This document shows, in pieces, positions 1-46,132 of a DNA stretch of 64,000 bases. The position numbers and the translations under genes are program-made. This DNA comes from a virus. Lineage: Duplodnaviria; Caudoviricetes. The notes beneath the pieces were generated by a model. That model ran no database searches. It saw nothing but the letters and a program-made list of their open reading frames with translations, and was not told where the DNA came from. The stretch covers positions 17,514 through 81,513 of IMG/VR virus record IMGVR_UViG_3300026549_000067; one strand, given 5' to 3'. Position 1 is the stretch's first letter, and every line of letters begins with the position of its first letter.

Positions 1-629
1 TTAAGTTCCTTCTTTGCTTTGGTGTACTTCTTTTTGCAATCATCAATACTTGCAACCGCTATGTCTGCCGCAATCAGATCGAAGTTTTCAACGCTTTCAG
101 CAACCTCTTCTGGCGTAACGTCCGATACAAACCTCATAAGAAGTTCTCTCTGCTTTTTCCAATCCATTGCAGGAAACGCCATCGGGTTTGTGAGCAATTT
201 GAAGATATCCTCATCGATGATGGATGCAATGAATGCTTTGTATTCTTTGTCGGACTTCGGGAAACCATTGATTTCAAACAGATTCTGGTTTCCAGAGAAC
301 TCCTGCTGTTCCTGACCGCGCTTTTTTACCCATTTTTCCTTCTGCGTCTTTTTGACTTCGTATTCAACACCATCAACCGTCATGTTGAGGATGCCTACGA
401 TTGCGGTATGGTGGATCTTCTGACCAGATGCATCTAAGGTTCTGACCTCAAACTTGCTGTTGCCCTTGCTATCCTTATCGAAAATGATCCACGAGATAAG
501 ATCCAATATGGATGTCTTACCAGAACCGTTCATTCCTTTGATGATGGTAGATAATCCAAACGGAATATCCACCTCTCTAAGACCTTTGAAATGTTCTCCG
601 TGTACGGAGTCAAATGTAATGTTTCTCAA
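1..629 (-). CDS. SMC/Rad50-like AAA ATPase of phage recombination module (5' part; runs off window)
   Basis: Not in ORF track. Manual translation from TTG at 629 gives LRNITFDSVHGEHFKGLREVDIPFGLSTIIKGMNGSGKTSILD, with Walker A GxNGSGKT, and is open to position 1. Confidence 0.85.
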   Translation of the reverse strand, partial: MRNITFDSVHGEHFKGLREVDIPFGLSTIIKGMNGSGKTSILDLISWIIFDKDSKGNSKFEVRTLDASGQKIHHTAIVGILNMTVDGVEYEVKKTQKEKWVKKRGQEQQEFSGNQNLFEINGFPKSDKEYKAFIASIIDEDIFKLLTNPMAFPAMDWKKQRELLMRFVSDVTPEEVAESVENFDLIAADIAVASIDDCKKKYTKAKKEL

Positions 630-736
630 TTGAAAATCCTCTCTTTCTGTGCTAAGATGAGGAAGTACAAAATGATCGTAATGCATTTGTACTAACCTCT
701 TTTGGAGTCATCTGTGCTAGAAAGATGGCTCCATTT

Positions 737-916
737 TTAATCCAACCATTTTCTGTACTTCTGGTAGAATGTGATGATTGTGTATCCTGACCAGACAAAC
801 ACCACGGTTCCTACCAGACCCATGAGTCCTGTTTCGGCAATCGTTCCGATGTAAAAGAACAACCCGATGATTGCGACTATCAGCAGGATCGCATCATTGT
901 TTTTTATTTCCTTCAT
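737..916 (-). CDS. small membrane protein (59 aa)
   Basis: Manual translation MKEIKNNDAILLIVAIIGLFFYIG...; two hydrophobic stretches; overlaps the upstream stop. Confidence 0.6.
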   Translation of the reverse strand: MKEIKNNDAILLIVAIIGLFFYIGTIAETGLMGLVGTVVFVWSGYTIITFYQKYRKWLD

Positions 917-1137
917 AACAACTCCCTTATCTCTTTGTCTGTTAATCCACGCAACCTGATGATTTTTGACAAACGGTCAAGTGGTATTGTTGATGGATAC
1001 TTCTTGTATCTGTACAAGGTTGTCTTGCTAATCTTTAATACCCTTGCCATCTTTTCTAACTTCACAGGATCATCCGGATCTCCGAAAAGAAGTTTTCTTC
1101 GCTGTTCATCAGGATCGCGACAGTATCCTCTTGCCAT
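913..1137 (-). CDS. HTH DNA-binding protein
   Basis: KMARVLKISKTTLYRYKK helix-turn-helix pattern; likely start MARG at 1137. Confidence 0.7.
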   Translation of the reverse strand: MARGYCRDPDEQRRKLLFGDPDDPVKLEKMARVLKISKTTLYRYKKYPSTIPLDRLSKIIRLRGLTDKEIRELL

Positions 1138-1298
1138 CACTCCACCTGTATGTGCTTTGTTTCTGCCTGACAGACAGGACACCACATATGCTTGCAATGT
1201 CCGATTGCTGTCTTGCTACCAGACCGCTTTGTTGCGGGTCTGGATGATCCGCAGGACTCGCATTTGAAATGGCGAACGTAAAATGATTGACGTTTCAT
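1137..1298 (-). CDS. small zinc-ribbon protein, ribosomal L33-like Cys spacing
   Basis: FKCESC...HMWCPVCQAETKH, 53 aa. Confidence 0.5.
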   Translation of the reverse strand: MKRQSFYVRHFKCESCGSSRPATKRSGSKTAIGHCKHMWCPVCQAETKHIQVE

Positions 1299-1792
1299 GA
1301 TTTCAGCTCCTGTTTCGCTTCTATCTGCTTGTAACACCATTCCTTGAAATCATTTACATCTTCTGTCGGATACCATCCGTCTATAAATTCGTACAATTTA
1401 ATCGCGTCTTCTGACGGAACTTCCGTATACGATGAAACATCGAACTTGTCATGGATGTCCTTATAAAGCCGCGCTCTGAATCTTCCAAAACAAGCCTGAT
1501 AATCCTTGTGATCTTTGTCAGACCATTCATTTTTGTTTTCCGGAAGTTTTAAAACCGTATAGATACGAATGGCTGTTTTTGCTCTGGCTTTTTTCTGCTC
1601 TCCGCGTCTGAGCGTTATCTGTGTTGCAAGATGTGCGTTGATTTGTTCCTGCTTTACCATGAATTCCTTGACGGTATCCTGTTCCTTCTCGATTACGTCC
1701 ATCCGGACAATCACACCATCGACTGTTGCCATAAGCCGTTTTGTGCCAAGTGCTATCTCGTTGATAGCCTGTACGTTTAATTCATTACTCAT
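1295..1792 (-). CDS. ORF6C-like phage regulatory/antirepressor-type protein
   Basis: N-terminal coiled coil, then ARLYKDIHDKFDVSSYTEVP...LYEFIDGWYP; lies downstream of cro. Confidence 0.55.
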   Translation of the reverse strand: MSNELNVQAINEIALGTKRLMATVDGVIVRMDVIEKEQDTVKEFMVKQEQINAHLATQITLRRGEQKKARAKTAIRIYTVLKLPENKNEWSDKDHKDYQACFGRFRARLYKDIHDKFDVSSYTEVPSEDAIKLYEFIDGWYPTEDVNDFKEWCYKQIEAKQELKS

Positions 1793-2675
1793 TCAGTGTT
1801 CCCCCGATATTAATTAACATTTGCTGTGACCATGCATTAATATTTCTGATAGCCTTTATTACGTCCATGCGCTTTTCTTCTGGAAGTTTCTCAATCTGTT
1901 CAGTTACCCAAACATATCCACCTACGTTTCGGATGAATGAATTGATCTGAGTTCCAAGGTATTCAGATTCTCTTTCAAGTTTGATCTGTGCGTCATGGAT
2001 CCCTTCGCGCTCTTCTAGTTCTTTTATGCGTTTATTAGCGGCGTTTCTTTCGTCCAGATACTGTTTGCGTTCTTTTGACAGAAGATCATTTTCTGATCTG
2101 ATCGTGCTATTTTCACGTTTGATTTTTTCGTAGTCTTCCGGAACAACCTTGACCTCTTTTGGTTTCTGGTTGCGTAGCGTGTCAATCTCTTCCTGTTGTG
2201 CTTTGACTCTATCTTTGTAATGTTTAATCTCACGCATCACGGAAGCCTTGGTAACAACCTCACCGTTTGCCAGAGCGTCATCAATGACCTTTTGGACTAC
2301 TTCTGGATGCTTTGCCATCTGTTGGTAGTCTTTAGCTTCGGTTACTCCGTAACCCATATTGGCAATGGTTTCAGCCTTGGTCTTTACCTCTGTCGAACGT
2401 TCGACAGAGGTTTCCAGATCGGTTCTCATGCCACTTTGTTTCGGAATTGCCAAAAGCAGTTCTCCGATCCTCTGTTCTGCCGCAATCAGCGCGTTGCTGA
2501 CTTCCTGTGTCTCTTTCAGTGTCTGATCCCTGATTTCCTGTGCAACCGATAACTTGTTGACAGTCTGTAGCTTCAACATATAAGCCTGTAGCTTCGCCTT
2601 ACCAACCAGAACAAATTGTGTTAAATCCTCAAGTGTGTCTGGTAGCTGATTGTTTCTTTCTACAATCTCGTTCAT
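1785..2675 (-). CDS. hypothetical early protein with coiled coil
   Basis: 296-aa ORF in operon with overlapping neighbours. Confidence 0.6.
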   Translation of the reverse strand: MNEIVERNNQLPDTLEDLTQFVLVGKAKLQAYMLKLQTVNKLSVAQEIRDQTLKETQEVSNALIAAEQRIGELLLAIPKQSGMRTDLETSVERSTEVKTKAETIANMGYGVTEAKDYQQMAKHPEVVQKVIDDALANGEVVTKASVMREIKHYKDRVKAQQEEIDTLRNQKPKEVKVVPEDYEKIKRENSTIRSENDLLSKERKQYLDERNAANKRIKELEEREGIHDAQIKLERESEYLGTQINSFIRNVGGYVWVTEQIEKLPEEKRMDVIKAIRNINAWSQQMLINIGGTLNE

Positions 2676-4533: not shown

Positions 4534-5744
4534 GACACTACTCCGTCACAATACAGTCCACCGGACTCGTTGGCGCGTTTCATCAATCTCAAAAACAGTG
4601 CCATTATATCCTTAAAGTTTTTGTCTTCGATATAATAATCGAGATTTTCCATATCATCCGGAGTGATTTCTAGACTTCCATACTCGATATCTCCATCTGC
4701 AACTCCGACAGATAACCAATCATAGAAGATGTCTCCGTCATTCAAATTCCGGACAATATATTCCATTGCTTTTACCATCTTAACGCGTTCCGGTTTATTC
4801 ATGTCATTTCTCCTTTCTGCTCTGTTGACACCAAGATGCAACCGCATCGGCGTAATTGTCTGTGTTTGCGAGTGACAGGCAGTACATGCAGGTTGAGCAT
4901 GTCATGCCACAGGTGGAGCGAACAGTTTTTGTTCGCTGATAACGTGCATCCAGATCGTATGCTGTGCAGTTGTAAGCTGCACCGTTGTAGATTTTCATTT
5001 TGATCTCCTTTCATAGCACTCTTTACACCAATACTTTCCATCCTTAACAAGATAAGGAATGATCTTTTCCGTCCTGTTCATCCTTATTCCGTATAACGGC
5101 ATATCCGGTATGATACGGAAGATTTCTCTGCCACATACATTACATTGCCTTGTGCCTTTCATGTTAAAACCTCTTTCCTTCAAATGTGTTGAACCGGACA
5201 TAGCGTCCGTTGCCATATGTTACGCTGTATACCCATGCGCTGTATGGAACTTCCGGAAACAGTGCGTCCAGCGCGTTATCATACGCTTCTTCCTTATTGC
5301 TTGCCAGAACGCTAATGTTGTGCGGAGTATCCGCAAAAAACATCTTGTACTGAACTGTATATGCCTTGTTTGACTTTGCCATGTCGATTCTCCTTTCAAA
5401 GACGGTTTAACCTATACCACCGACAAGGTATTTGATTATCAGAACTCTGCTTCGTGGATTCTGATGCCAATCATCTTCCATGATCCGTTCTCACCTGTGA
5501 ATCTGCTTGAGAAGAAAGTTGTGAGATATGCAATCATTCTGTCAGACCGGAAGTCCGTGTCATATCGGATATCGTATGCCTGACCACCAAATGGTTCTGT
5601 TTCCATGCTGATGAACATCCAGTAACCATTTCCATAGTCTCCTTCTTTTTTACCAAATTCGGCTGTTCCTTTATAGGACACTGACTTGCCGTTTCCATCG
5701 TTGAGATAAAGAGTTACGTTAAATTGTTCCTTCATTTGTACCAC
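4530..5744 (-). CDS. cluster of 5 short hypothetical genes (4530-4802, 4804-4998, 4995-5216, 5164-5382, 5439-5744)
   Basis: Contiguous short ORFs, most with an AGGAG-type RBS, behind their own promoter. Confidence 0.55.
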
Positions 5745-5782
5745 CTTTCTTTCTATGATGTGCTAGTGTCTTTCGTTGATTA

Positions 5783-5812
5783 TATATTACCACTCATTGA
5801 GTGGTTTGTCAA
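5783..5812 (-). promoter_or_regulatory. sigmaA-type promoter with palindromic operator in spacer
   Basis: TTGACA...TAATAT on the minus strand; accactca-t-tgagtggt palindrome at 5789-5805. Confidence 0.7.
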
Positions 5813-5891
5813 TACCTTTTTTGCATTTTTAGACAAAAATAGAAGCACCTCAATTAAGAGATGCCCCTATTAAAGCTGCGCTTTGTGTTAT

Positions 5892-6287
5892 TTACATTGT
5901 CTCCATGACTCTGCGGATTGCTTCGCGTTCCTGTTCGGTCTGTGCTTCGTTCATCATCTGATGAAGTTTGTCCATTGTATCGCCAGTTCTGCTATAACCG
6001 CCAATTCCATTGTAGCTGTTTCGGTATGAGTTACCACGATACATTGTATTGTTGTTACGATAGGAATTGCCACCGCCCATGCCATATGAATTCATGGGAT
6101 ACTGCGGCATATAACGCTGTGAGTAACCGCTGTCGTTCATTTCGATTTCGCCCAGATCCTTGAGGATGTCAACCATCTTGTAAGTACAAGCAAGACTGTT
6201 CTCATCAAGTTCACCTCTGGCAGTAATCTGATCCATCTCAGAACCGATCATGTCACGGAGCTTATCGAAGGTTTTCTGCATTTCCAT
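5892..6287 (-). CDS. unknown-function cassette protein with Tyr/Ser/Gly/Asn-rich middle
   Basis: Helical N-terminus, repeated SY/YS-R motifs, helical C-terminus. Confidence 0.7.
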   Translation of the reverse strand: MEMQKTFDKLRDMIGSEMDQITARGELDENSLACTYKMVDILKDLGEIEMNDSGYSQRYMPQYPMNSYGMGGGNSYRNNNTMYRGNSYRNSYNGIGGYSRTGDTMDKLHQMMNEAQTEQEREAIRRVMETM

Positions 6288-6304
6288 TGCGTTTCTCTCC
6301 TTTC

Positions 6305-6766
6305 TCAGCGAGTAATAGCCAGATCTGGTCGCGTGATGATGATATTCGCATTCTGTACCAGAATTGGTTGGTCACTGGTATTTGTAATTGAGAGAGTTTC
6401 GCAACATCCGCGCCATACATCTGCGTTGATTGCTCTGGACACATTGAAATACTCATCAACTGCGGCAGGAGTCACAATCATTGTACTAGACGGAAGAACA
6501 CTTCCATCCAGTGAGATTGCAAGGCTAATTGCACCAACTGTACCTGTTGTCGGGATTGCAATGTTTGCTCCGAAGTCAACAAGGTAATTTGCGCTGTTGT
6601 TTCTGCATCCGCATGAATTGTACGGAACCCAACCACTCAGAAGAAAGTTTCCACTACCATCACGATGTCTTACGAATCCCCTGTTGCAAGGAACTGCAAC
6701 ATCCGTAAATACAACTGTCTGTCCAACATCGACAAGCTGAGAGTCATTAGCGAAGTATTCAGCCAT
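6305..6766 (-). CDS. beta-rich Cys-containing protein, possibly BclA-CTD/C1q-like
   Basis: Alternating beta-strand pattern (VDFGANIAIP, ISLAISLDG, NANIIITR) with PCNRG and GCCE motifs. Confidence 0.6.
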   Translation of the reverse strand: MAEYFANDSQLVDVGQTVVFTDVAVPCNRGFVRHRDGSGNFLLSGWVPYNSCGCRNNSANYLVDFGANIAIPTTGTVGAISLAISLDGSVLPSSTMIVTPAAVDEYFNVSRAINADVWRGCCETLSITNTSDQPILVQNANIIITRPDLAITR

Positions 6767-6781
6767 AATTGACCCCCTTCC

Positions 6782-7708
6782 TTACGCTACGCCGCATCCG
6801 CATCCACAACCACCGTTGTTACAAGTGAAGATCGGTGTACGTCCATATACTGGAGTAGTCGGAACTGGGCAAGTGTTCAGACGATTGTACAGAGCATCAA
6901 CCTCGTTGTTGAGTCCCTGTTGGAAGAGTGCTGTCTGGGCATTGTTGTTTGCCAGAATCTGTGCTGTCTGCTCAACCTGAGATGCCTGACCGCGAGAGTA
7001 CATAAGTTCCTGACGGAGATTTGCAATTGTTTCATTCTTCTGGTCATCGCGATACTCGCAAAGCTGATCCTTAATGGATTGAATGCCAGAATTGAATGCT
7101 GTCAGAAGTGCCTGAGTGTTCTGGGTATCAGTTGTTCTTGTTGCGCACGCTTCGGTTGCAAGTGCAAATTTAGCATCAGCGATACCAGATGCAATGCCAT
7201 TAAATCCTTGCATGTTAGCTGTCTGTTCTGCGAAGGAACGATTCAGATTTGCAATCTCGTTGCTATTAAGCTGTTGAGAAATTGCGTTCTGCGCTCCTGT
7301 TACTGCGGCAGTTGTTCCTGCAAAACCATTGCACAGGGATTGCTGAATACCTGCTGTGCTGTTTGCGAGTGCCATCTGCATATCGCCACAGCATCCACAA
7401 AGCTGAGTTGCAAGACCACTCACGCCATCTCTGACAGAAGTAACGCTGTCATGAAGCTGTGCATCACGGAATCCATCGTTGACATTGTTATTGATACCGT
7501 TCTGACCATTCAGAAGCCACGGAAAATCAATTCCAAGTCCACCTGCGAAACCGCCGCCGAAGCCGCCCATTCCCCAACCGTTGCCGCCGATCAGCAGAAG
7601 CAGAAGAATCCATGCCCAATCTGCACCGAATCCCATGCCACCACCATATCCACCGCCATACATCGGAGAGACCGGCATTACAAAATTTTCCTGATTAGAA
7701 GAAAGCAT
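6782..7708 (-). CDS. Gly-rich membrane-anchored coiled-coil Cys-rich protein
   Basis: GGGYGGG...WAWILLLLLIGG N-terminus, CGCC, long heptads, C-terminal GCGCGCG. Confidence 0.75.
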   Translation of the reverse strand: MLSSNQENFVMPVSPMYGGGYGGGMGFGADWAWILLLLLIGGNGWGMGGFGGGFAGGLGIDFPWLLNGQNGINNNVNDGFRDAQLHDSVTSVRDGVSGLATQLCGCCGDMQMALANSTAGIQQSLCNGFAGTTAAVTGAQNAISQQLNSNEIANLNRSFAEQTANMQGFNGIASGIADAKFALATEACATRTTDTQNTQALLTAFNSGIQSIKDQLCEYRDDQKNETIANLRQELMYSRGQASQVEQTAQILANNNAQTALFQQGLNNEVDALYNRLNTCPVPTTPVYGRTPIFTCNNGGCGCGCGVA

Positions 7709-41771: not shown

Positions 41772-42622
41772 TTATTTGTTTCGTTTTGCTAACTTTTCTT
41801 CTAACTCCGCAACTGCCTTGTCCAGATCTTCAGAACGCCAGTATGCCTGTCGCTTGCCCTTGCGCTGTTTGTTTATCACGGTTCCACCCATCAGGTAATC
41901 TATGTGGTCAACAATACACGGAAAGATGTTTGTCGCAGTTAGATTCGGCATTTTTCTTGTGACATATTCTCTGAACAGCGAATCATCACATTTGCCAGAA
42001 TTTAAATAGTCTGGAAACTGCTCTTTTGCTTCTCCGCTCTCCATCCACTTGACAAAACCGTCCATGAGCCTGTTCGGTATTAAAATGCACTGGAATGAAA
42101 ACCACATTCCGTTACATGACACCTCTCCGATGTAATTTGTTCTTTCGCCATCGAATTGGTTATTGCAGAACGCATTGGCAAATCCAGTATACTTTTTCTC
42201 AGCAATATCTCTAAAATTTGATCCAATTACAACATCGTCCTGTAAGTGCCATGTCGAATTGTACGGTTCAAGATTCTCCGCTATCCATTTGCAACTTGCT
42301 ACCCATGACGCAAGATTTCCGATGCTGTCATAGTCGTGCCAAACAATAATGTTATCTTCCTCGATGCCCTGTTCTAACAAGCTGGGTAACAGGAAGTCTT
42401 TCACGTACCATTCACGGTCATTGCAGACATGAATCATGTACTTCTGCGCAGTATCAAGATATTTGTCCATGTACTCTCTGCGGTAAATGTTCCGATTCTC
42501 ATACCAATCTTTGATTCCACAGTAATGCACGATTGCTGGATTATCCGTGTATCCTGTCGATTGGTTTTCATTGAATCTCAGCGGTACGACAGCGACTTTG
42601 TTTTGCTCTATGCCATATTTAT
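41772..42622 (-). pseudogene. glycosyltransferase, 3' remnant after IscB insertion
   Basis: RFNE..TG.TDNPAIVHYCG (GT8-like C-terminus) fused to an HLQDD GT-A-like domain; the 5' end MNIVYAMTRNV lies at 44404-44437. Confidence 0.65.
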
Positions 42623-42684
42623 CCAAAAGTAGGAAAGAATACCACCACCTCTAAGCGAAGCATAGGTGGCGGGATGAATTTCCC

Positions 42685-44181
42685 TCACAAATAGACAAGC
42701 CCTGTGTTTTGTGATGTGATTCGACAGTCTCGTCTCGGGTAGTTTGTCTTCTTGTCCCCCACAACACGTAAGTACAGTCCGCCAGAAATCTGCCCACTCA
42801 TCACGTGCCGTTCACCGTTATGAACAAACACAGTTCCGGGCATTAATCTCTTATCGCTATTGTAGTATCGCGTGCTTTTCTTCACGCTTACACGACTCAA
42901 CATATGCATAGCTCTTTGCTCACCATACAATTCAACCTGTTTGTCAAACCAGTCAGATAAGGCATCTCCCTTTTGTTCGAATCGTGGTTTTCTATTCTTT
43001 GCGATCATTTTTCCGTCGTAAAAATATGTACGTTCTCTTTGCGATTTAACGATTGCTCTGTTATGCCTTCTGAACTGCATGATATGGTACATCTCTCCAA
43101 TCGCATCAGGTTCCGGCAGCTCTTTAAAGAAGGAAAGCGCAATACAGTAAGCATCCATGAAATGCCTCTTGGGAAGCTGCAGTTTCTCCCGAATGCTTTT
43201 GGTCTCGTATCCGGTTGTTACATATGTCGGCAGTATTTCAGAAAGCTCCTTAAGAAGCATTTCCATGATCTGGTTGATTAGACTCAGCGCATGATACTTC
43301 TTTAAAATGCCTTCCTTCTTTTCTTTCAGCTTGCCTGCTGCCCGGTCGTTTTTGTGGACCTGCTCATGACAGGATGTACACAATCCGGCGATGTTGTCGA
43401 TACTTTCGCTTCCACCTCTGCTCTTCGGAACGATGTGATGAAACTGCTCGATGTCTGCTTCGCCACAAAGCAGACACTTATGTTTTTGCTGCTCTGCGAC
43501 AGCTTCGTCCCTGCTGTCATATCCAAACAGCCGGCCTTTTTGGTACTCCCAGTTCCTGATGTTCGGATTTTGCATTCTTGCGAAATCAAAAACATTGATT
43601 TCAACAACAACGCAGGTAACCGGAAGAATCTTCTGAATGAGCTTAATACAGTTAATATGCGTCTCCTTTAGCTGTCTTGCTGACGGTGTCAGCCATTCTG
43701 CTGCTCTGGTTCTGTTGTTGAATCTGGCTTCCGTGTTTCTGATATGCTTACAGCAGATCGGCTCCTTACAGCCCGGAAGCATACGCCAGAACTCGGTATG
43801 TTTTGCCATGCCGGTTTTGTCAGATGCTATAGCCCTTCTCTGGCGCTTTTTGCGTTCGCCTCTTCTGGAGGATTGCCGCATCTGCTTTCTATGAAGCATA
43901 AGTTTTGCAATTTCCTTGTTCCTTGTAACTGCTTCCGCGGCATAAAGAACATTGCCTCTTGAATCCACTGCTGTAAGCCCGATATTCGTTCTTCCCGGAT
44001 CGACGCCAAGAATTACATCATCCGTAAACGGATTCTCGATATCGTATGTGAGCTGAATGGTGAAAGGCTTATAGCATGCAATATGGGCCTTTCCCGACTT
44101 TAACAAGCGCCTTGCGCGCCCGTATTTGTGGATTGGCATCAGCGGCTTGCCACTTTTTGCCAGTACGTAGATATTTGGCAT
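42685..44181 (-). CDS. iscB: RNA-guided endonuclease IscB
   Basis: PLMP N-terminus, RuvC-I GVDPG, Arg-rich bridge helix, RuvC-II VVE, HNH HHIVPKSRGG..NIAGLC..CH, RuvC-III HFMDA. Confidence 0.95.
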   Translation of the reverse strand: MPNIYVLAKSGKPLMPIHKYGRARRLLKSGKAHIACYKPFTIQLTYDIENPFTDDVILGVDPGRTNIGLTAVDSRGNVLYAAEAVTRNKEIAKLMLHRKQMRQSSRRGERKKRQRRAIASDKTGMAKHTEFWRMLPGCKEPICCKHIRNTEARFNNRTRAAEWLTPSARQLKETHINCIKLIQKILPVTCVVVEINVFDFARMQNPNIRNWEYQKGRLFGYDSRDEAVAEQQKHKCLLCGEADIEQFHHIVPKSRGGSESIDNIAGLCTSCHEQVHKNDRAAGKLKEKKEGILKKYHALSLINQIMEMLLKELSEILPTYVTTGYETKSIREKLQLPKRHFMDAYCIALSFFKELPEPDAIGEMYHIMQFRRHNRAIVKSQRERTYFYDGKMIAKNRKPRFEQKGDALSDWFDKQVELYGEQRAMHMLSRVSVKKSTRYYNSDKRLMPGTVFVHNGERHVMSGQISGGLYLRVVGDKKTNYPRRDCRITSQNTGLVYL

Positions 44182-44403
44182 AATGCCTCTCCTTTCGTTA
44201 GTTTTGCAGCGATAATGACTGCAAGTCCAGCCGCTGCCACTGTTAAGTTTCCCGAGGCTTGGCGCAGCCTTTGCATTGCACGGAGCTGGGAAAACCCCGC
44301 GGTGTATGCTGCGTCACGCCTCTGCTCAACTACTCGTTGGACTTTATGCAAGCCCCCACTTCAAACAGATGCGCCAGCGTCTGTTAAGTGGTGGGTAGTT
44401 GAC
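44182..44403 (-). ncRNA. omegaRNA scaffold of IscB
   Basis: Starts gtcaactacccaccactt...aagtgggggcttg, then gttgagcag; sits directly upstream of iscB. Confidence 0.85.
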
Positions 44404-44492
44404 ACACGTTTCGTGTCATTGCGTATACGATATTCATGCCAGTTGCCCTTTGCCCCTAAAAATTCTTCCATGAACACAATCATAATCACAAA

Positions 44493-44565
44493 CGGAAACG
44501 GTAGGACTTGAACCTACGACCCCCTGATTAACAGTCAGATGCTCTACCGACTAAGCTACGCTTCC
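44493..44565 (-). tRNA. tRNA-Asn(GTT)
   Basis: Cloverleaf; ctga-ctGTTaa-tcag anticodon arm; GTTCAAGTC T-loop. Confidence 0.92.
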
Positions 44566-44801
44566 ATGTCGCTCCGTCCACCCTTCGGAGCATTGCGTCT
44601 GTTTTCATCGGTTCGTGGTAGTGAACTGCTGACAGGTGGAAAGCACTTAGTAGCTTGCACTGTGTAGATTAGTTTAATGTCTCTCTGCACTAAGACGAGT
44701 ATCCATATAACAGAATGTTGTGGGAGAGCCATAACTGACAGCCATCACCCACAACCTCTGTGAAAGGAAACAGATATTGGAAAGAAAAATAACAACGGAT
44801 C

Positions 44802-45421
44802 CCCATGAACACAATCATAATCATAAATGGATCTTCACCCTACACAACAACATCGTCACAATATTCAGCCACCGTTCCGACAAGTCTGAGCCATAAGGAG
44901 CGACCCTATAACTTCTTGCCAGTTCCCATAAGGGACAGTAACGAGTCCGAGTGGTCACGGAACAAATTTCACGCAGGTCATTCAGATTTTCTTGACCTAA
45001 TAACGGTACATGGATTTCAAGTCCATTCCGTTCTCTTCCATTTCAGAAGTCAATGCCAATTTGCGCTACTCTTTCACCGAACAGGTCTTATTGTCGGATT
45101 TCTCCGACTCAATGGCACAAGCTGTTTATGGACATTTCCGAGCGTTTCCGTATGTTGTCCAGACATACAGGCGTATCGGATTAAGCGATGCAGTGCATCT
45201 CTCTATTGCACAGCCGACCTGACAGCAACCTTTTGCGGCAACATTATTATGCGCATACGCTTGTCGTTGACGGTTTCCGTCTTCCAGAGAAACATCACTG
45301 CACCTCTGAAGCATACATACGGAAGTATCCCACCGCATATATACTTGACATACGCGCATCCCAAGCACGCTGACTAAGCGATCTTCACTTGGGTATTTAT
45401 GACCATGATTGTGTTCATGGG
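44802..45421. repeat. 27-bp inverted repeat enclosing the large RNA (44802-44828 / 45395-45421); third arm copy 44468-44492
   Basis: cccatgaacacaatcat(aa/gg)tcataaat; the third copy is 24/25 identical to the first arm. Confidence 0.9.
44829..45393 (-). ncRNA. ROOL-like (ROOL/GOLLD class) giant ornate RNA, ~565 nt
   Basis: No convincing sense ORF; next to tRNAs. Motifs recognised from memory: GUGAAGAUC at both ends, CUGUGCAAUAGAGAGAUGCAC, AAUAAGACC..GGUGAAAG, AAUCUGAAUG, GGUGGCUGAAUA..GUAGGGUGAAG. Confidence 0.75.
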
Positions 45422-45725: not shown

Positions 45726-46132
45726 GTCAACTACCCACCCACTAAAGTGAGTGGGCTTGTAACTATCCGGTAGTCCGAACGACCTGTGGTCTCCTGCCTT
45801 TGTTACAAGCGAGCTTGCTGATGTTACATCACGGGACGGTTGACAACGCCCCTTGCAAAGGAGATGTACTCCGATGCAACTGCAACGGTACTTGATTCCC
45901 ATGCTTGCAGTTAAGATGGTTATTTCAACACTTAAGATTTTACATTCCAAGTGATTAGTTGGAAAAACCTCATATCTTAACTTGTCAATGTTCAAAGAGT
46001 GCCTTCAGTAACAATGGTTACCCAACGGTTTTCTCTATGGGAATATTATAACACAAAATCTCACTTTTAGAAAGGAAAAACGGCTCCTCCCACCTGCTAA
46101 AGCAAGTGGGTTTCCGCCGCTGAATCAGTTTT
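45726..46132. mobile_element. ORF-less IS200/IS605-derived element (407 bp)
   Basis: gtcaactaccc terminus like the IscB element, with hairpin cccact-aaagtg-agtggg; second hairpin cccac..gtggg at 46089-46110. Confidence 0.7.

Follow-up and report, generated by a model that had tools for sequence, protein, structure and literature searches.

An IscB–omegaRNA element in a rumen phage glycosyltransferase gene, with a predicted guide and TAM matching the intact alleles of sibling phages

Introduction

IscB nucleases take their guide from the 5′ flank of the element that encodes them, read a TAM 3′ of the target and cut both DNA strands. When such an element lies in a gene of a phage, what would its guide be aimed at, and could the nuclease act on other phages? 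This question is raised by a rumen phage known from an 81.5-kb IMG/VR virus record that is rated complete and comes from a bovine gut metagenome. We analysed 64,000 nt of this record (bases 17514-81513, hereafter the window). An initial annotation, made from the letters of the window, had proposed an IscB element at 42623-44437 with a guide and TAM targeting a phage glycosyltransferase (GT) allele.

The flank-derived guide, the 3′ TAM and the double-strand cut are established IscB behaviour (bioRxiv 10.1101/2023.03.14.532601; PMC13565253). In bacterial chromosomes, IscB and TnpB retain their transposons by cleaving the site that an excised copy has vacated; spread between competing genomes has so far been argued mainly from plasmid experiments and theory (PMC13565253). 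The same review lists co-infecting phages as a theoretical target of non-restorative homing, and the sole experimental case of non-restorative spread that it cites concerns plasmids. The papers that we searched contained no description of IscB-mediated homing between phages.

Results

Boundaries of the IscB element

The stretch 42623-44403 of the window is a non-autonomous IS200/IS605-type IscB-omegaRNA (OMEGA) element of 1,781 bp, and all features of its neighbourhood are encoded on the minus strand (Table 1). Its boundaries were set by four lines of evidence, namely a second copy of the element, the start of the Rfam HEARO model, gut contigs from other animals and intact alleles of the interrupted gene.

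The closest protein relative (P0001, 95% identical) is encoded on a 3.1-kb ENA contig, L010. At the DNA level the window and L010 are 94.8% identical across 44403-42632 and unrelated outside that span. On the guide side both elements start with GTCAAC directly after unrelated flanks, and this omegaRNA 5′ motif and start are kept in L010, L015, L016/17 and L018. The far side shares a common layout in the two elements (hairpin, T-rich stretch, ~14 nt, NTAAA), and clear homology ends nine bases short of the NTAAA motif, at 42632.

Contigs from four other animals' gut samples (runs X2, X3, X5 and X8, the source run being X1) were used for comparison. Contigs from other metagenomes that are 98% identical to the GT part stop matching exactly at 42622, and past this point an X5 contig encodes the upstream residues of the intact GT gene. 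On the other side, an X3 contig matches 44404-44462 and diverges from the window before 44404. The annotated flanks therefore stand at both ends: L010 homology and the HEARO start at 44403 place the end of the guide flank at 44404, where foreign contigs and intact alleles diverge, and the far flank opens with the proposed ATAAA. Of the span first proposed, the element proper is exactly 42623-44403, and 44437 is the A of the GT start codon.

Table 1. Features of the IscB locus and its upstream neighbours (window coordinates)
Feature	Position	Strand	Remarks
ROOL RNA	45416-44810	minus	341 bits (340.7), Rfam RF03087, full-length, model 1-574
tRNA-Asn	44566-44492	minus	between ROOL RNA and the interrupted gene
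GT8 gene 5′ stub (start codon + 31 nt)	44404..44437	minus	34/34 nt identical to L020, L021, L264, L265
Presumed omegaRNA guide	44419..44404	minus	final ~16 nt of the GT8 gene stub
omegaRNA scaffold, HEARO-type, 222 nt	44182..44403	minus	starts GTCAAC; also the guide-side transposon end with hairpin
iscB, 498 aa	42685..44181	minus	RuvC and HNH catalytic residues intact
Far (TAM-side) end, 62 nt	42623..42684	minus	imperfect hairpin, then T-rich linker; layout conserved up to NTAAA
ATAAAT abutting the element, TAM-type motif	42617..42622	minus	second of the GT gene's only two ATAAAT sites (nt 527)
3′ part of GT gene, codons 176-460 of intact form	41772..42622	minus	96% nt identity to L020, L264

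Both ends form single-stranded DNA hairpins with similar stems (z -4.6 at the omegaRNA end, z -2.2 at the far end), as expected of IS200/IS605 ends. The element thus combines defined ends, subterminal hairpins and a short adjoining target motif, and there is no target duplication beyond that motif.

Such a structure could be mimicked by an IscB element wrongly joined to a phage contig during metagenome assembly, since the junctions are supported by one sample only: an ENA contig 100% identical to the window over 7.7 kb (L022) probably stems from the same data and is not independent support. However, the same sequence was obtained with two assemblers, and the two junctions fall exactly at the true ends defined by L010 and at the two ATAAAT sites of a single gene, unlike in a chimera. 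We regard the chance of such an artefact as negligible.

Some features of the L010 sister element deserve mention. Its final nine bases (L010:2724-2732) differ from those of the window (42623-42631) at five of nine positions, despite 95% overall identity and only three differences in the 222 nt of omegaRNA; cleavage sites may shift at this transposon end. The sister element is flanked by a transposase C-terminal fragment (phrog_2199, L010:2-274) and an HNH-endonuclease fragment (phrog_119, L010:2818-3102), and hence lies within a nest of mobile elements. Its guide flank, too, spans the opening few codons of an ORF, one that has a good ribosome-binding site.

The IscB protein and its closest characterised relatives

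The predicted IscB matches Pfam RRXRR (7e-48) and HNH (5.8e-10, residues 236-277), and it aligns end to end with IscBs of solved structure, best with the OrufIscB chimera 9nvu (2.6e-141) and also with OgeuIscB (7xht/7utn, 2.5e-118). The RuvC domain is split, with D61, E194, H340 and D343 lying in blocks aligned with the solved IscBs. The HNH domain is inserted into it, and HH248-249 and the downstream Cys/His blocks are conserved relative to OrufIscB. An N-terminal PLMP motif (residues 12-15 of the translation) aligns with OrufIscB as well. The annotation of intact RuvC and HNH motifs is accordingly borne out by the Pfam matches and the structural alignments.

Compared with the L010 protein, dS is 0.20 and dN 0.026 (dN/dS 0.13) and, judged by this pair of sequences, the IscB is under purifying selection. 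A more distant IscB element, 59% identical, immediately precedes type I CRISPR-Cas genes (Cas_CT1975, Cas5d) on a metagenome contig (L018:2888-4262).

OrufIscB, the parent of NovaIscB from a human gut metagenome (9nvu; PMC13180657), is the best match among solved structures. The two enzymes share a compact architecture (492 aa in OrufIscB, 498 aa here) and a well-conserved C-terminal TAM-reading region. They differ in sequence and habitat (human gut versus rumen phage), and the TAM, guide length and activity of the phage enzyme are predicted from sequence. OgeuIscB-omegaRNA (7xht, 7utn) resembles the phage system in its full-length alignment, in the layout of RuvC, HNH and PLMP, and in an omegaRNA with a 5′ guide just upstream of the gene. 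It differs in its TAM, which is given as NWRRNA (PMC12660989), and in that the phage omegaRNA reaches only a low score with the Rfam HEARO model.

The omegaRNA

The 222 nt directly upstream of iscB are non-coding, structured and conserved. The HEARO match (44403..44242) scores 23.8 bits (E 0.098) against a gathering threshold of 83, and it begins with model position 1 on 44403, in the correct place and on the correct strand. A consensus fold from a five-sequence alignment contains 56 pairs, 24 of them with compensatory changes, among them those of the long-range stem in which the first bases past the guide are paired. The three differences to L010 in the omegaRNA amount to 1.4%, against an ORF dS of 0.20.

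We found no promoter of the sigma-70 type near the omegaRNA on the minus strand, which means that its transcription must begin further upstream. When viral and JGI metagenome contigs were scanned for exact matches to the omegaRNA 5′ end, nothing was returned. With a degenerate omegaRNA-start motif we retrieved more than 200 loci, but nearly all have IscB/IsrB proteins that are only ~30% identical; hence the TAM panel described below gains only L235 and L046.

A second, orphan omegaRNA-like fragment lies on the opposite strand at 45726-45800 (+). It resembles the first ~75 nt of the omegaRNA, with the same GTCAACTACCCACC start and a hairpin, has no IscB gene behind it and matches HEARO weakly (21.3 bits, E 0.39). 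Contig depth in X2 is raised over the bin that holds it. This fragment is probably the stump of an older element.

Transposases

The IscB element contains no Y1 (HUH) TnpA and is therefore non-autonomous. The initial annotation was thus right in noting no tnpA as far as the element is concerned, whereas the phage genome does carry an IS605 with tnpA and tnpB ~54 kb away (G000:C1:~5530-7200, outside the window; L019 ~200-2000, minus strand). Its tnpA (132 aa; Y1_Tnp 3.5e-47, 159 bits) is the only Y1_Tnp gene of the phage and is followed by a 377-aa TnpB-like gene with Cas12f1-like TNB (1.7e-25) and OrfB_IS605 domains. This IS605 is complete, has matching hairpins on both sides and adjoins a DnaB-like helicase gene. 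Since the phage has both IS605 tnpB and IscB, it carries both kinds of OMEGA nuclease. We do not favour mobilisation of the IscB element by the phage's own TnpA, as the IS605 hairpins are unrelated to those of the IscB element.

Genomic neighbourhood

Past the IscB locus follow, in order, a tRNA-Leu, a tRNA-like gene, a tRNA-Gln, small ORFs and the terminase. The ROOL RNA precedes the element by two genes and belongs to a stretch rich in tRNAs. Between them, the tRNA-Asn lies in a cassette (44465-44825) flanked by direct repeats of ~25 nt (44468-44492 and 44802-44828). This cassette is missing in relatives: X3 and X5 contigs skip ~335 nt, and in L264 the GT gene directly follows the ROOL RNA. 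X2 and X3 contigs also show a skip of ~1,040 nt by which ROOL is lost as well. A megablast of the locus against deposited phage genomes gave nothing beyond tRNA-sized matches, and an IMG/VR search with the IscB protein found no relative.

Intact alleles in sibling phages

The gene broken by the element exists in uninterrupted form, as a 460-aa GT8 glycosyltransferase, in sibling phages (L020, L021, L264, L265). The first of these proteins, P0121 (encoded in L020 and L021), was found with the 3′ GT part of the window; it is 96% identical, has 460 aa and matches Pfam GT8 at 2.5e-20. Another member of the cluster, P0247 (L264, L265), occurs on 20 contigs, the longest of them recorded at 75 kb. 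We left L266 (P0241) out of the junction evidence because its contig starts inside the gene.

In the intact alleles, the 34 nt from the start codon equal window 44437-44404 with no mismatch and are followed by ATAAAT. This motif occurs at only two sites of the intact gene, nt 35 and nt 527, and the far flank of the window starts at the second. In the window allele, the element therefore stands in place of nt 35-526 of the intact gene, an in-frame loss of 492 bp or 164 codons; here an OMEGA element replaces part of a gene, beyond merely interrupting it. The replacement removes the GT8 catalytic core including the DxD region and leaves the C-terminal domain as the only part that can be made. The open frame left downstream holds a GT8 remnant and this domain, and the version of the gene caller (P0122, 232 aa) starts at an internal Met. 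The proposal that the guide and ATAAA target a GT allele thus proves right in that such an allele exists, in several samples and with no mismatch, but the intact allele is not simply the guide flank joined to the far flank, as 492 bp between the two ATAAAT sites are missing from the window.

More distant relatives (L004-L007, ~70% aa identity) encode a 457-aa protein whose first ten residues are the same. They carry the target with mismatches, followed by TATTAT and no NTAAA. Based on these relatives, the missing 164 codons seemed to argue against reconstructing a guide plus ATAAA, an objection overturned by the 96%-identical alleles.

In L008 and L009 the C-terminal ~220 residues form a separate gene. 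This domain (41772-42450, minus strand, in the window; P0144-P0240) lacks a match in Pfam and PHROG. As a gene of its own it is widespread in phages, and fusions to GT8 or NTP_transf_3 (PF12804) occur.

Predicted TAM and target

The measured TAM of OrufIscB is NTAAA, with ATAAA most optimal (PMC13180657), which agrees with the initial view that ATAAA-like TAMs are known. ATAAA is also the motif at the far flank of our element and after the target in the intact alleles. Among six independent elements of the clade, the far flank is ATAAA in five (window, L015, L235, L018, L046) and GTAAA in one (L010); the near-identical elements L015 and L235 diverge only past ATAAA. Flanks, intact alleles and OrufIscB together support NTAAA in two roles, as insertion motif and as TAM, and the carrier's IscB probably shares the TAM of OrufIscB.

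A perfect target, that is a guide match followed by ATAAA, is present in L020, L021, L264 and L265. In the carrier locus the guide match is followed by GTCAA of the scaffold in place of the motif, and we found no guide match with NTAAA elsewhere in the carrier phage genome; by this account the carrier's own allele is immune. As with homing elements, related genomes hold the target and the carrier lacks it.

Origin of the 492-bp deletion

The deletion would most likely have arisen in two steps, with insertion at the first ATAAAT (nt 35) and subsequent slippage or recombination between the two ATAAAT repeats. Recombination between alleles with insertions at site 1 and site 2 would give the same product. 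A one-step replacement spanning the two ATAAAT sites, with the two transposon ends joined at different target motifs, is a possibility as well.

Alternatively, the element might have inserted first at the second ATAAAT (nt 527), where the far junction now lies, and a later guide-side deletion might have reset the guide, making its match to a sequence with ATAAA secondary. Guide-side flanks can indeed change without harm to the element. Nevertheless, such a deletion must begin exactly at the first base of the omegaRNA and end exactly before the gene's only other ATAAAT with no repeat to guide it, a coincidence that site-1 insertion followed by loss between direct ATAAAT repeats does not need. 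Entry at the second site is consequently very improbable, and we retain the first ATAAAT as the likely insertion site.

Distribution of the two alleles

Of five runs examined, one, the source sample (with its reassembly), contained the IscB allele, and the four others showed only the intact allele. No contigs of X2, X3, X5 or X8 fell on the IscB body, which means only that it was not assembled there. The protein clusters are uneven in size, with 80 sequences for the intact GT protein and two for IscB. Based on these assemblies, we see no sign of the IscB allele spreading beyond one sample.

This rarity would suit a passive passenger that hopped in through a host-supplied TnpA, perhaps during lysogeny, is kept only by ordinary restorative homing or is simply young, and plays no role in contests between phages, the broken gene being collateral damage to be purged. 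That the element has no transposase of its own fits such an origin, and the measured purifying selection could date mainly from bacterial hosts before arrival. Against it stands the perfect match of guide and TAM to common sibling alleles; given expression of the nuclease, cutting during co-infection would be automatic with such a match. Within a neighbourhood of 72-84% identity, the GT segment moreover reaches 96% identity to L264, which hints at recent exchange at the locus, although ordinary phage mosaicism could also explain it. On balance we consider a mere passenger unlikely.

Discussion

Taken together, the probable explanation of the locus is an IscB element inserted at ATAAAT in a GT8 gene, with a guide and TAM aimed at the intact alleles of sibling phages, from which we infer homing. 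Taken by itself, the element is an ordinary IscB insertion sequence of a known kind; what makes it interesting is that it lies in a phage and that carrier and target alleles occur naturally as a pair.

By analogy with the family mechanism, the omegaRNA transcript would include, as a guide, ~16 nt from the gene stub, and the loaded IscB would recognise the stub sequence wherever it precedes NTAAA and make a double-strand cut a few bases away from this motif. The RNP is predicted to target the allele that is common in siblings as well as the site left by precise excision. A cut in a sibling, or in a copy from which the element has been excised, would then be repaired from an IscB-bearing genome. 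Such repair would copy the element plus the 492-bp deletion into the rival, and failed repair would destroy it. Cleavage, homing and phage competition are thus predictions of this model.

Two kinds of homing system offer parallels. IS200/IS605 TnpB and IscB, in restorative homing (Meers et al., bioRxiv 10.1101/2023.03.14.532601) and non-restorative homing (PMC13565253), likewise have a flank-derived guide and a TAM that equals the target motif, and cutting of the element-free site lets recombination restore or spread the element. The phage element differs in having no TnpA of its own, in residing in a virus and in that the 492-bp deletion of the donor would be co-converted. Free-standing and intron-encoded phage homing endonucleases (T4 Seg/Mob; an intron endonuclease, PMC11620839, cited in PMC13565253) also target the matching site of a co-infecting relative, their own allele being protected by the insertion. 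They read DNA through protein, whereas IscB would use a predicted RNA guide plus a 5-nt motif, and the gene it occupies is broken and not spliced back.

A more far-reaching reading is that of a natural RNA-guided gene drive among rumen phages, in which a sibling GT gene is cut at codon 11 during co-infection and repair installs the element together with the 492-bp loss of the GT8 core. We put this forward tentatively, as a scenario that is less probable than its opposite but deserves consideration. If true, 'transposon non-restorative homing' between viruses would here be seen in nature for the first time, and the allele so driven would be one with loss of function.

The locus adds a rumen-phage relative of the genome-editing enzyme OrufIscB. 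It also presents a natural allele pair: guide and motif can be read from the carrier, and in common siblings the same gene holds a perfect target. As the sequence supplies the guide, TAM and target as well as the donor arms, the locus is a defined test system.
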